Shown: one piece after another, positions 2,780-10,616 of the stretch
Position numbering within the stretch: the stretch's first letter is position 1
Layout of the letters: each line of letters opens with the position of its first letter
IMG/VR virus record: IMGVR_UViG_2558860161_000001
Length of the DNA stretch: 31,894 nucleotides
Reading direction: 5' to 3' (one strand)
From: a virus
Lineage: Duplodnaviria; Heunggongvirae; Uroviricota; Caudoviricetes
The notes under the pieces: generated by a model
Database searches by the model: none
Seen by the model: only the letters and a program-made list of their open reading frames with translations
Told to the model about the DNA's origin: nothing
Made by a program: the position numbers and the translations under genes

Positions 2780-2814
2780 TTCGGCGTGCAGAAGCCCACG
2801 GCACTGACGCCGAA
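2780..2814 (-). other. Intergenic stem-loop (8-bp stem TTCGGCGT/ACGCCGAA) just upstream of the zinc-ribbon gene RBS
   Basis: Inverted repeat at 2780..2787 and 2807..2814. No U-tract follows on the transcribed (minus) strand, so it is not a classical intrinsic terminator; possible processing or attenuation element. Confidence 0.3.
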
Positions 2815-2836
2815 ATAAAAAGAAATTGAATTAAAA

Positions 2837-3448
2837 TTAAATGGCAGCGATATCTAACGGAATATTAATTAGCTTCCCGTGTTTATCTTTCTCCCGGAAA
2901 TTAATATAGGTTTTGGACATTGCCACCTGCAGTGATTCCGATATGGCCTCCATTGCCCGGTTCCAGCGCTCGTCCTGAATCTTGACGCGGCGCAGGGAAA
3001 GAATACGTCCGGTATTAAGCTGGCCCTCTTTGTCCACCTGAAAAGCATCGCTGATGATGGCCCGCAGGTTGGCGTTCGCGCCTTCCGACCACTCGGTGAC
3101 GCACTCGTCTATCAGGTCTTTGGCAATCTGCAGCTCTGGCCCGAAGGTCAGGGTTTCCTGCACGCGGATGGTGATCTGCTGAGCACCGTCGAAGCTGCTG
3201 AAGGTCACGTTGCCTTTGGCACCGCCACGCGTTCTGCCGTACTTCTCGGCCACAAGGTCAAGCCAGGCATAGCACTCGTCAAAGGCACGACGCTTGAAGT
3301 CACTGAGTTCATCGCGTTTAACCTTCGCGGCGACAACCTGTTCTTTAACGAAAGAGTCCATCGCAAGGTCATAGTCAGACACCTGGTCAACCGGCACCAG
3401 ACGCCCCTTGCGGTCTTTCATGTAGTTTTCTTTATTTACTTCGCTCAT
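2837..3448 (-). CDS. Conserved transposable-phage early protein (tentatively DUF3164-like)
   Basis: 203-aa ORF with AAGGTGA Shine-Dalgarno before ATG at 3446..3448. Position downstream of the helper ATPase and sequence character fit the family; assignment is from memory only. Confidence 0.55.
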   Translation of the reverse strand: MSEVNKENYMKDRKGRLVPVDQVSDYDLAMDSFVKEQVVAAKVKRDELSDFKRRAFDECYAWLDLVAEKYGRTRGGAKGNVTFSSFDGAQQITIRVQETLTFGPELQIAKDLIDECVTEWSEGANANLRAIISDAFQVDKEGQLNTGRILSLRRVKIQDERWNRAMEAISESLQVAMSKTYINFREKDKHGKLINIPLDIAAI

Positions 3449-8220: not shown

Positions 8221-8631
8221 ATGAGTATAAAAGAGAGATTGCGCGAAGCGATGGATGCTAAGAGTCTGACAATTAAGGCATTGTCAGACTTGTCAAAAAT
8301 TCCATATCGCTCACTTCAAAACTATCTGCGTGGAGAGAGAGAACCTAATGCAGAGGCTCTTGTTGCGCTAAGCACCCATTTGAACATATCAATAGATTGG
8401 CTACTTACTGGTAAAGGGGAAGCTGTTGGGGTAGAGAAAGCACAGCCAGCTAATCAGGAGCAGCATTTCAACCAGTCTGATCTGAAGTTATTGGAGCTGC
8501 TCAACCAACTGGAGCCAGAGGTGCGAAAAGAGTTGCTGCGAGGCGCTGAGGAAAAACAGCGAATGATTGATATGGAAAAACAGCTTAAGGAGCTGTCCGC
8601 AGCGTTCGAAAGATTAAAAAATACGGGTTAA
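8221..8631 (+). CDS. XRE-family HTH repressor (CI/c-like immunity repressor, no peptidase domain)
   Basis: N-terminal HTH (LTIKALSDLSKIPYRSLQNYLRGEREP...ISIDWLLTGKG) and C-terminal coiled coil. Divergent from the early operon. ATG at 8221 preferred over the upstream alternative start of the track ORF. Confidence 0.7.
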   Translation: MSIKERLREAMDAKSLTIKALSDLSKIPYRSLQNYLRGEREPNAEALVALSTHLNISIDWLLTGKGEAVGVEKAQPANQEQHFNQSDLKLLELLNQLEPEVRKELLRGAEEKQRMIDMEKQLKELSAAFERLKNTG

Positions 8632-8672
8632 TCTGTTCCTATTAAGAACATTATAGGTATAAGGACATGACT

Positions 8673-9200
8673 ATGCGCAAATTATTTTTACCGTTGATAT
8701 TTGTTTTATCTGGGTGTGGAGATAATACCGATCCTGCTGATACGTCCACCACAGCTAAGGAGCACGCGGTTTTTAGCGTTGAAACAGATAATCCGGTTGT
8801 AAATCGCGAATTACCGTTTATTCGCCAACAACTCCCCGGCCTGGATAAGTACGCGGACAGTTTTGAAAAAGTCGAAGTATCCGAGGATAGCGAACGTCCG
8901 GTGACAACGGTGCAGTTTCATATTAAAGACGAAAATAATATTCCAAGTGACTACATAGCCTCTGGTCATAATTGTTATTTGTTCATATCAAATAATGCCC
9001 ACGAAGTGAAAATATCTAAATCAGCATGTCAGGCTGTTTTTTTCGATAAAACGGATGTTCCTGGTGGAGACCTGACCGTGAAACTTGATAAGGAAAAAGT
9101 TCCTATGACAGATGATGGTAAGACCCCGCGAGCAGGTTGTTTGAAAGCTTATTCACCAGAGCCAGATAATGATTATTGGACTTGTCCAAGGCAGGATTAA
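8673..9200 (+). CDS. Lipoprotein of unknown function (moron; lipobox LSGC)
   Basis: Signal peptide MRKLFLPLIFVLSGC with lipobox Cys. Four further Cys in the mature part. AAGGA Shine-Dalgarno 7 nt before ATG at 8673. Gene and the adjacent repressor are markedly AT-richer (about 40-43% GC by eye) than the rest of the prophage (about 55-60%). Confidence 0.65.
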   Translation: MRKLFLPLIFVLSGCGDNTDPADTSTTAKEHAVFSVETDNPVVNRELPFIRQQLPGLDKYADSFEKVEVSEDSERPVTTVQFHIKDENNIPSDYIASGHNCYLFISNNAHEVKISKSACQAVFFDKTDVPGGDLTVKLDKEKVPMTDDGKTPRAGCLKAYSPEPDNDYWTCPRQD

Positions 9201-9206
9201 ATGTTT

Positions 9207-9233
9207 AGGTGGTGCTGCAGATGCACCACCACC
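9207..9233. terminator. Hairpin between convergent lipoprotein and methyltransferase genes (possible bidirectional terminator)
   Basis: AGGTGGTGC ... GCACCACCT inverted repeat centred on CTGCAG. Weak T-tracts, so termination efficiency is uncertain. Confidence 0.4.
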
Positions 9234-9247
9234 TTTAACTACCTCTT

Positions 9248-10018
9248 TCAAAAATTACAAATTACCAGCTCTTTCTTCGGGCTGGGTTTGCCTGTTACCT
9301 TAAGGTTGTAGCTGATATCAACCGACTGCATGTTCAGACCGTTGAATACCTGCCGCATTTCCGGGATATCGTTCACTGATATAATCATCTTCCCTTTGAT
9401 CCTTCGCGCTAAATCTGCCATGTGATCATAGTTTTCCAGCCCGAACTCCACACCATAGCCTTCCGTTCCCCAGTACGGTGGGTCACAGTAGAACAGCGTA
9501 TGCGGGCGATCATATCGCTCTATGCACTGGTGCCAGTCCAGATGCTCTATCAGCGTTCTCGACAGGCGCAGGTGTGCCATCGACAGTTCTTCCTCAATAC
9601 GCAGCAAATTGAAGCGCGGCGCACTGGTTGTAGAGGTACCGAATGTGTGATCGGCGACCTTGCCGCCAAATGCCTGTTTCTGCAGGTAGTAGAACCGGGC
9701 CGCCCGCTGAATGTCGGTGAGCGTTTCTTCCGGCGTATCCTGCAACCATTTGTAAATCTGACGGCTGACCAGCGCCCATTTGAACTGGCGAATAAATTCT
9801 TCCAGATGATGCTTGACCACCCGATAGAGGTTCACCAGTTCCCCGTTGATATCGTTAATGACTTCGGTCTTGCTGGGAGTCTTTAGGAAATAGAGCGCAG
9901 CTGCCCCGCAGAACGGCTCCACATAGCAGGTATGGGCCGGAAACAATGGTAAAATATGCTTCGCCAGACGACGTTTACCGCCAATCCATGGGACGATGGG
10001 TAAAGATTGTTCTTTCAT
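9248..10018 (-). CDS. Dam-family N6-adenine DNA methyltransferase (orphan, no cognate endonuclease seen)
   Basis: Motifs PWIGGKRRL, VEPFCGAAALYF (AdoMet binding) and DPPY (catalytic), in the D12-class order. Start set to ATG 10016..10018 rather than the TTG at 10042. Confidence 0.85.
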   Translation of the reverse strand: MKEQSLPIVPWIGGKRRLAKHILPLFPAHTCYVEPFCGAAALYFLKTPSKTEVINDINGELVNLYRVVKHHLEEFIRQFKWALVSRQIYKWLQDTPEETLTDIQRAARFYYLQKQAFGGKVADHTFGTSTTSAPRFNLLRIEEELSMAHLRLSRTLIEHLDWHQCIERYDRPHTLFYCDPPYWGTEGYGVEFGLENYDHMADLARRIKGKMIISVNDIPEMRQVFNGLNMQSVDISYNLKVTGKPSPKKELVICNF

Positions 10019-10121
10019 TATCCGTAAGCCTTTTGCAATCAATGAAAATATGGCAGGCTAGTCTGGTCTCGCGAGACTGACTGAACCCTGGTCGGCTCAC
10101 AGTGCATACCTGTGGGTTGAT

Positions 10122-10165
10122 GACCAGCCTGGTGTTACCGCACCGGGCTGGTCGTTCTTTCAAAG
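10122..10165 (+). other. Composite hairpin (GACCAGCC ... GGCTGGTC with inner GGTG/CACC) followed by GTTCTTTC; terminator-like element or small RNA 3' end
   Basis: Inverted repeats at 10122..10129 and 10146..10153 with an inner 4-bp stem, then a T-rich run. Lies in the 247-bp intergenic region between the methyltransferase and the lysis genes. No upstream plus-strand gene explains a terminator here. Confidence 0.35.
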
Positions 10166-10265
10166 CCATCATGCGGTTCACGTCTGCATCCTCACTATTA
10201 ACGCTGTTTAAAATCCCTTTCCCCGACCATTTGTGATGCTGTCTCCACTACACAAGGAGACGCTC

Positions 10266-10616
10266 ATGAAAAACCTGAAAAAATTCATTCCCCCTGTTAA
10301 AAAGCCACGTCTCAGCGGCTGGCTGCTGACCGCTGTGCTGCTGCTCGGCACCATCGGTCTGGTATCGCCCCAGCAGCTGCCGGTGGTTGTCTACAAGCTA
10401 TCACTCATCACGCTGGCGGCAGTATTGGGCTACTGGCTTGACCGTTCGCTTTTCCCCAAAGCCCGTCCCGGTCAGTACCTGAAGCATGATGACAGGCTGA
10501 TGGCTGATGGTCGCTTCCCTGTCCAGACTGGCCTTCACCTGGTCTTTTCTGCTGCGCTAATCCGCCGTGCGCTGATTGTTGCTGCAGTCTGTCTGGCCGT
10601 AGCGATGGGGCTTTAA
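10266..10616 (+). CDS. Membrane protein, first gene of lysis cassette (putative holin)
   Basis: AAGGAGA Shine-Dalgarno 5 nt before ATG at 10266. Three hydrophobic segments. TAATG overlap with the next gene. Confidence 0.5.
   Translation: MKNLKKFIPPVKKPRLSGWLLTAVLLLGTIGLVSPQQLPVVVYKLSLITLAAVLGYWLDRSLFPKARPGQYLKHDDRLMADGRFPVQTGLHLVFSAALIRRALIVAAVCLAVAMGL

Follow-up and report, generated by a model that had tools for sequence, protein, structure and literature searches.

Plasmid countertranscribed RNAs (ctRNAs; RF00236 and the pT181/pIP501 type) are antisense to the leader of their target; one of their hairpins exposes a 7-nt loop, and a GC-rich terminator hairpin with a U-tail follows. In the cis-antisense systems FinP/traJ of F-like plasmids and RNA I/RNA II of ColE1, which consist of consecutive stem-loops, varying loops set specificity and the stems are kept. 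Among phages, lambda OOP, P22 sar and P1/P7 c4 are short, terminator-ended RNAs antisense to the transcript of a neighbour, and com-mom of phage Mu is a DNA-modification locus under multi-layer control; to our knowledge, mom is the only phage DNA-modification gene whose control is known in detail. Orphan Dam methylases carried by phages affect the epigenetics of the host, its mutation rates and the evasion of restriction. Here we describe a candidate regulatory RNA in the 247-bp region (positions 10019–10265) between a dam gene and a holin gene in a 31,894-nt viral sequence (IMG/VR record IMGVR_UViG_2558860161_000001), the whole of which is referred to as the window. Sequence comparison indicates that 10051–10161 is a self-contained plus-strand gene for a structured small RNA (sRNA) of ~95 nt, with predicted transcription. 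The element appears to represent a new, widespread RNA family of a known type, a cis-antisense countertranscript with an intrinsic terminator, tied to phage Dam cassettes. That its role is to restrain dam is the reading we favour, with about an even chance of being correct; control of the lysis genes is not supported.

In the predicted fold, a palindromic 5' hairpin (P2) precedes a three-way junction, in which a closing helix (GAAC:GUUC) encloses a 12-bp hairpin with a free 7-nt loop (P3) and a 14-bp GC-rich hairpin (P4), followed by a U-rich tail (Table 1). The plasmid ctRNAs share the antisense placement, the 7-nt-loop hairpin, the GC-rich terminator hairpin and the U-tail; here, however, the presumed target is a phage DNA methylase rather than a plasmid Rep, and the 5' palindromic hairpin and the closing helix with its three-way junction are extra. 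Rfam 15 contains no family for the element, and the window copy, searched over 141 nt, gave no RF00236 match even at E ≤ 10. Two loci of one Betaproteobacterial subclade (L305 and L300) scored 45.1 and 42.3 bits against RF00236 ctRNA_pGA1 (gathering score 45), aligning over P3, P4 and the tail, and ~35 other loci tested, including phages B3, phiE125 and VP882, gave no match; the window copy is thus outside RF00236. The arrangement of consecutive stem-loops is similar to that of FinP/traJ and RNA I/RNA II, but no FinO- or Rom-type chaperone is evident here, and the predicted 5' end of the element misses the dam ribosome-binding site (RBS).

Like Mu com-mom, the locus places a DNA-modification gene of a Mu-like phage next to a (here predicted) divergent promoter, and some relatives carry Com directly upstream of dam. 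Unlike it, the window lacks com, with no open reading frame (ORF) in 10019–10053, and a covariance model of the element finds nothing in BcepMu or in the com-mom-carrying prophage Sp18 of E. coli Sakai; Sp18 is a true Mu-type phage with neither dam nor the element. We know of no structured divergent RNA described for mom. Lambda OOP, P22 sar and P1/P7 c4 have no sequence or model similarity to the element (C4, RF01695, scored 17 bits on the wrong strand) and differ in partner gene and architecture. Searches of the literature on BcepMu, sRNAs of Mu-like prophages, ctRNA_pGA1 and Burkholderia thailandensis sRNAs turned up no account of the RNA, and HnrS and BTH_s1/s39 are unrelated.

Support for the structure spans ~150 distinct homologues. 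Eighty viral contigs retrieved through the Dam protein alone, a selection unbiased toward the non-coding element, yielded 71 distinct upstream sequences. RNAalifold on a plain MAFFT alignment of these recovered the two 3' hairpins and an unexpected helix, GA(A/G)C:G(U/C)UC, with compensatory changes at 15/27 pairs. In a second unfitted alignment, of 20 diverse sequences, 90.1% of cells were paired, compared to 33–43% with slid partners, and the covariation score was 0.317, compared to at most 0.105. The covariance model built (R1) finds a single copy in the window, at 10052–10164 on the plus strand (108 bits, E 3e-30). Later, 100 distant loci were collected with Dam queries from Nitrosomonas and Methylibium prophages (the distant set), and the final structure, comprising P2, the closing helix, P3 and P4, was tested on covariance-model-fitted alignments. 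In the distant set, 92.1% of cells were paired and 35/38 pairs had compensatory changes, with a covariation score of 0.52 against at most 0.11 for slid partners; in the enteric set, the figures were 93.6% of cells and 22/36 pairs. The tip of P2 had double changes at 7/7 pairs in the distant set, and P3 compensatory changes at 12/12. P4 corresponds to the composite hairpin at 10122–10153 of a preliminary description of this region, made from the sequence alone. Its arms (10122–10134 and 10141–10153, 13 nt, 92% complementary) and the GTTCTTTC that follows them were recovered as described, and the covariation check proposed there, in homologous prophages, came out in its favour, with compensatory changes at 10/13 pairs in the enteric set and 12/13 in the distant set.

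The closing helix, first returned by RNAalifold on the plain MAFFT alignment, was never part of the covariance model, and its support is therefore independent of model fitting. One of its pairs occurs as G-C in 32 sequences, A-U in 28 and C-G in one, and 99.2% of its cells are paired in the enteric set and 92.2% in the distant set, with compensatory changes. The helix has 4 bp in the window (GAAC:GUUC) and up to 8–9 bp elsewhere, for example GGCAGGGC:GCCCUGUC; its mean length is 6.35 bp within the same element and 4.55 bp when tails are swapped between sequences. A lower P2 stem in the first model, AGGCU:AGCCU, was dropped: its pairs never covary, AGGCU belongs to a conserved -10 hexamer, and the 3' partner pairs with the tail as the closing helix. 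By thermodynamic folding, the 248-nt plus strand gave z = -3.6 (0/200 shuffles as good) and the minus strand z = -1.3, and the predicted RNA, 10066–10161, folds exactly as the consensus (-47.9 kcal/mol, z = -4.7).

Base-pair composition identifies the strand on which this structure is selected. Pair counts give 404 G-U against 140 A-C overall, 193 against 2 in P3 and 81 against 29 in P4; the top of the P3 stem is Watson–Crick on both strands, and its conserved G-U pairs lie in the lower stem. The reverse complement of 10066–10161 loses P3 (z = -2.6), and the covariance-model score falls from 108 bits for the plus strand to 18.7 bits for the minus strand. Since a G-U pair on the plus strand is an A-C mismatch on the dam strand, the G-U excess together with the folds points to a structure selected on the plus strand, antisense to dam, and not in a riboswitch or translational operator of the dam leader. 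We therefore regard it as very unlikely that the element is instead a cis-acting 5' leader or intercistronic element of the dam mRNA, such as a translational switch or processing site. The enteric minus-strand minimum-free-energy (MFE) fold does pair AGCCU with AGGCU of the Shine–Dalgarno (SD)-like AAGGCU of dam, a modelled pairing that may cover the site, and Com-type translational control occurs in relatives; but this fold lacks P3, the frequent conserved G-U pairs of P3 become mismatches in it, and the AGCCU/AGGCU complementarity is not kept in Betaproteobacterial types. An SD-sequestering switch composed of AAGCCU, AGGCU and GAGCC was rejected as confined to the enteric clade.

The predicted 5' end rests on a conserved hexamer. 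A sequence nAnnnT lies 4–12 nt (mostly 6–8) 5' of the first base of the palindrome in 124/127 homologues, with T as the first base in 93 and C in 30, and is preceded by TGn in 56/124, where ~6% would be expected; examples across clades are TAGGCT, TAGACT, TACACT, TAGAAT, TACAAT and TATATT. This spacing puts the predicted +1 at the first base of the palindrome, G10066. The sequence GAAAAT (10044–10049) was also considered as the -10, and was dropped in favour of the palindrome-adjacent hexamer, which distant clades conserve. At the 3' end, the covarying 14-bp stem at 10122–10153 is followed by GUUCUUUC, and the tail is U-rich in all clades, as in an intrinsic terminator. The preliminary description had noted that no plus-strand gene lies upstream of the hairpin for it to terminate, which is correct, dam (9248–10018) being on the minus strand, and had listed the 3' end of a small RNA as one option. 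This option agrees with our results: the hairpin and U-rich tail appear to be the end of a covarying plus-strand structure whose beginning is a conserved (TGn)TAnnnT -10. A role of the terminator in blocking read-through from the immunity operon is unlikely, because another hairpin, at 9207–9235, already parts the lipoprotein gene of that side from the 3' end of dam.

The position of this promoter also raises the possibility that the act of transcription is what matters. A constitutive divergent promoter would compete with or occlude dam transcription, in the style of momP2 and momP1, and the structure would be an insulating terminator. Bidirectional transcription is established at the mom promoter of phage Mu, where momP2 acts on momP1. 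In many relatives the -10 is 13–35 nt from the dam start, so that bound RNA polymerase covers the dam 5' region, and the terminator abuts the upstream genes. A terminator alone, however, needs no second 12-bp hairpin with a loop of fixed size, no closing helix and no 5' hairpin, all of which covary over very large distances, and we consider this explanation improbable.

The element is closely linked to dam. It adjoins dam in 79/80 close viral loci and at least 85/100 distant viral loci, always on the opposite strand, as expected of an antisense RNA, and usually 13–45 nt from the dam start codon. In ~12/100 distant loci, in L084 and in phage B3, it is ~160 nt further from dam. In L084 (~2810–3000) and B3 (L309, 1334–1519), a Com zinc-ribbon gene lies between the element and dam, forming a com-dam operon; the L084 protein matches PF10122 (E 7e-13), and B3 ORF47 is annotated as Com-like. 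The spacing suggests com-dam in the remaining ~12 distant loci as well. A survey of genome contigs with the pattern CTCACAGN7CTGTGNGTT gave mostly chance matches and became usable with a covariance-model filter. The matches listed include Symbiopectobacterium, Buttiauxella, Mixta, Serratia, Photorhabdus, Nitrosomonas, Nitrosospira, Methylibium, a Burkholderiaceae MAG and Francisella, and these copies each adjoin a Dam homologue of 61–96% identity. The sole dam-less copy among the matches listed, in Pantoea stewartii ATCC 8199 (L117, 5566–5678), is truncated at its 5' end, without the promoter-proximal bases, and is probably a decayed remnant.

Three cultured phages of different types carry the element inside their late operons. 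In VP882 (59.9 bits) it lies between gpD and dam; in phiE125 (45.2 bits) it fills the intergenic gap between Rz and dam; and in B3 (38.0 bits) it separates the tail chaperone gene from com-dam, the tape-measure gene being downstream. Late transcripts of these phages have to read through the element in the sense direction, which makes the predicted RNA a true cis-antisense partner there. In many Betaproteobacterial types, the 13–35 nt from the dam start to the RNA -10 leave no room for a promoter, and the dam mRNA must therefore start within or beyond the RNA gene. The 3' end of the element adjoins or overlaps annotated upstream ORFs in VP882, phiE125 and B3, and in phiE125 and VP882 a gap of 2–6 nt separates it from the end of the last named late gene on the same strand. 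Hypothetical ORFs overlapping or opposing the element, ORF45 and ORF46 of B3 (132 and 81 nt; L309) and gp36 of VP882 (333 nt; L311), are probably spurious.

A different job for a real sRNA, namely action in trans on host or phage mRNAs, or protein binding, with dam as a mere carrier cassette, is unlikely but deserves more weight than the other alternatives. From enterics to Betaproteobacteria, the junction linker keeps the sequence C(C/U)UGG(C/U)U in a predicted single-stranded state; recognition by a partner is suggested by the conserved G-U pairs and by a top of P3 that does not vary in enterics; and trans action is common for prophage sRNAs, such as HnrS (PMC13502914). A free-standing trans-acting sRNA would have no need of a constant opposite-strand position 13–45 nt from its neighbour, and among the matches listed all copies save the truncated one of P. 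stewartii are tied to the 5' end of dam or com.

Under the favoured antisense reading, a sigma-70-type extended -10, TGGCAGGCT, would start the transcript near G10066, the RNA would fold into the 5' hairpin and the three-way junction, and transcription would stop in the U-rich tail near 10160. Because the element and dam are head to head, any transcript that enters dam from upstream carries the exact complement of the RNA in its leader. The RNA would pair with this leader, probably starting as a loop–loop contact at the 7-nt loop of P3, and pairing would limit the expression of a DNA methylase that could be harmful, up to the point where strong late transcription overcomes the restraint. The terminator would keep the antisense transcript out of the neighbouring genes, which here are the lysis operon. 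The P3 loop has 7 nt in 129/151 elements, with 37/65 and 68/86 distinct sequences.

Several points weigh against this mechanism. The weakest link is the presumed overlap of the dam mRNA with the RNA in the window phage itself: the dam promoter was not located, and no leftward promoter was found in the window to the right of 10162. The start, end and promoter of the sRNA are predictions; the window hexamer, CAGGCT, is weak, matching only A2 and T6 in addition to the TG, no recognisable -35 was found, and neither site was among the calls of a generic scan for promoters and terminators. The U-tract of the tail, GUUCUUUC, is modest, imperfect and partly taken up by the closing helix. A hypervariable P3 loop is equally expected from neutral drift of an unconstrained loop. 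Finally, selection on an RNA stem does not account for the palindromy of P2 through its centre, and may reflect an additional constraint or another one altogether, for instance a DNA site or dimerisation.

The palindrome GTCTCGCGAGAC at 10066–10077, noted in the preliminary description, is indeed perfect over 12 bp. It is single in the 31.9-kb window, where the next-best matches need 3 mismatches, a chance level. P2 is a perfect palindrome of at least 10 bp in 117/148 distinct homologues (median 12 bp), compared to 4.8% of shuffles, and the corresponding median for the P3–P4 part is 4 bp. At least 30 different P2 palindromes occur, with self-complementary tetraloops that include CGCG, CCGG, UCGA, ACGU and GUAC. 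Such palindromy is a constraint unexpected in an ordinary sRNA, and could reflect RNA dimerisation, a hairpin common to the sense and antisense RNAs, or a DNA site at +1. In Photorhabdus-type loci (L046, L048, L051, L052, L054, L057, L080 and L119 4104–4223), 2–3 tandem ATCAATA repeats replace the palindromic tip; the flanking stem is retained, and model scores fall to 66–78 bits.

The palindrome is also a reason to consider that the element works as DNA, as an operator for a dimeric regulator (Mor, the repressor or another protein), as a cruciform, or as hairpins in single-stranded DNA. It occupies +1 to +12 of the predicted promoter at a fixed spacing to the -10, which is compatible with an operator at +1; P2 is palindromic through its centre where the P3 and P4 loops are not; and hairpins in single-stranded DNA also tolerate G-T pairs. 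As a Mor/C site or repressor operator, though, it would have to be a single copy whose sequence differs between close relatives with near-identical neighbours and whose distance to the dam ATG ranges from 39 to ~65 nt, and the -10 motif, U-tail and plus-strand G-U bias in P3 and P4 fit RNA. We give the DNA readings only a small probability.

The preliminary description had further proposed a cluster of regulator binding sites, and had listed three copies of CTGGTC and an inverted one. These are present at 10063, 10088 and 10148, with GACCAG at 10122, and four copies in 91 nt are a local excess relative to the 35 in the window. The arms of the large hairpin account for two of the four, and CTGGTC is missing from 105/151 homologous elements; the repeat is therefore incidental to the E. 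coli clade. With the repeat not conserved, and a palindrome that is single in the phage and changes freely in sequence yet stays palindromic, this proposal is not supported.

A speculative extension of the antisense reading, which we think improbable as a whole, is that the dam (or com-dam) cassette is a portable unit with an RNA 'safety lock' of its own, in which P2 is a second device and the 7-nt kissing loop sets non-interfering specificity groups. P2 is the same on the sense and antisense RNAs and starts at +1, and could then be a module for RNA dimerisation or an extended duplex, a site for RNase III or another protein, or a DNA operator and RNA hairpin at once. If so, loop specificity groups would let several dam cassettes share one cell; E. 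coli genomes contain up to six copies of the element.

The family is found in 572/5426 complete E. coli genomes and in hundreds of phage contigs, across Gamma- and Betaproteobacteria and including B3, phiE125 and VP882. All members share one RNA-level device, which is directly testable, and the element closes an annotation gap, given the missing Rfam family and the spurious small ORFs that several records place over it.

Table 1 Features of the window around the sRNA element
Feature	Position	Strand	Description
Early genes		minus	Leftward; end in Mor-family activator, 297–716 (PF08765)
CI-like repressor gene	8221–8631	plus	
Lipoprotein gene	8667–9200	plus	
dam	9248–10018	minus	D12-class N6-adenine DNA methyltransferase (Pfam MethyltransfD12, E 1e-27)
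dam translation-initiation region	10019–10050	minus	Complement of GTAAGCCTTTT (10024–10034) is AAAAGGCUUAC, with SD-like AAGG
Predicted sRNA promoter	10051–10059	plus	Extended -10 TGGCAGGCT; hexamer CAGGCT, 10054–10059
P2, 5' hairpin	10066–10077	plus	GUCU-CGCG-AGAC; predicted +1 at G10066; the palindrome of the preliminary description
Closing helix, strand c	10083–10086	plus	GAAC; pairs with strand d (10154–10157), closing the three-way junction around P3 and P4
Junction linker	10087–10092	plus	CCUGGU; conserved
P3 hairpin	10091–10121	plus	12 bp (10091–10102/10110–10121); loop UGCAUAC, 10103–10109; lower stem G-U-rich
P4 hairpin	10122–10153	plus	GC-rich, 14 bp (10122–10135/10140–10153); loop UACC (RNAfold); the composite hairpin of the preliminary description
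Strand d and U-rich tail	10154–10161	plus	GUUC then UUUC; predicted 3' end and intrinsic terminator for plus-strand transcription only
Late-promoter-like motif	10196–10214	plus	CTATTAACGCTGTTTAAAAT; good -10 TAAAAT, 10209–10214; no -35
Holin leader hairpin	10241–10262	plus	GUCUCC-ACUACACA-AGGAGAC; over holin SD AAGGAG
Holin gene	10266–10616	plus	Followed by SLT endolysin and terminase genes, plus strand

The window represents a BcepMu-like (Bcepmuvirus) transposable prophage of E. coli. Escherichia phage Phi06_2974 B and a prophage of E. coli Ecol_542 match the 247-bp stretch and its flanks at 100% identity, and in the latter the dam gene is annotated as DNA adenine methylase; BcepMu has the same gene layout but lacks dam. 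BLAST of 248 bp against 5426 complete E. coli genomes gave matches in 572. Among these genomes, the block 10020–10162 is conserved, and in ~550 the match is limited to it (query 2–144, 84–88% identity), directly abutting the dam start codon. The homology of relatives to the window ends directly after GTTCTTTCA. In ABU 83972, JJ1887 and phage PhiKM, three extra genes, two of them on the minus strand, lie between the dam block and the holin. The 70 bp upstream of the holin, with CTATTAACGCNNTTTAAAAT and then the GUCUCC...GGAGAC hairpin, are conserved in KP12, PhiKM, ABU 83972 and JJ1887, 1.0–1.6 kb from the dam block. Because the two parts travel apart in relatives, 10019–10162 belongs with dam and ~10196–10265 with the late operon. 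The preliminary description had treated the region as one divergent control region; its features are real, but they fall into three modules, the dam ribosome-binding region (10019–10050), the plus-strand sRNA gene (10051–10161) and the late-promoter and holin-leader module (~10196–10265).

This modular inheritance bears on the remaining option of that description, an attenuator at the entry to the late operon. A leader RNA and terminator gating the lysis and late genes, relieved by antitermination as at lambda pR'-tR', would suit an element that has a terminator at its end and is followed, ~105 nt further on and on the same strand, by the holin. The block, however, remains next to dam in relatives where three genes, two of which face the other way, part it from the holin, and the late-promoter-like motif lies downstream of the terminator and, with the holin leader, stays with the holin. 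In B3, phiE125 and VP882, moreover, the RNA opposes the flanking late genes. We attach hardly any credence to an attenuator. The motif at 10196–10214 may be a Mor-dependent late promoter. The stem of the holin-leader hairpin and the flanking ATTTGTGATGCTGTCTCC are invariant in KP12, PhiKM, ABU 83972 and JJ1887, and from its sequence the hairpin would sequester the holin SD.

In the dam initiation region, GTAAGCC and TTT are invariant among 61 homologues, and an A/T-rich spacer that includes GAAAAT (10044–10049) lies upstream of the SD-like site. Distant relatives have an (A/G)GGCUU motif ahead of dam or com, whichever comes first. ORFs of 68 aa (minus strand) and 44 aa (plus strand) across the region were rejected as genes, their frames being broken by indels and loop variation in relatives. 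L059 and L061 carry an insertion of 12 nt, roughly one turn of the helix, where the spacer links the dam RBS to the RNA -10 (between GAAAA and the hexamer); that of L061 folds into a 6-bp hairpin of its own, AUGCCA-GCA-UGGCAU.

On the other side of dam, a strong hairpin at 9207–9235, GGTGGTGC-TGCAGAT-GCACCACC, separates its 3' end from the convergent lipoprotein gene. It is likely to be a bidirectional terminator, although the generic terminator scan made no call there. The lipoprotein gene, downstream of the repressor gene, is AT-rich, and the signal peptide that it encodes ends in LSGC. Pfam gave no match and PHROG a weak one; the gene is missing from ABU 83972-type and JJ1887-type relatives, and is probably a moron expressed in lysogeny.

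Two copies of the element are present in L060, at 2220–2332 (100.5 bits) and 2855–2967 (95.3 bits), flanking a 154-aa ORF on the strand of the RNA. The distal copy retains a remnant of the 5' end of dam, which suggests that the element is a recombination junction for cassette exchange. In Nitrosospira and Nitrosomonas loci (L125, 4150–4222; L131, 6026–6098), a tRNA gene lies just past dam, and the dam cassette is at the extreme end of the prophage, by the attachment site, a placement resembling that of mom at the end of Mu.

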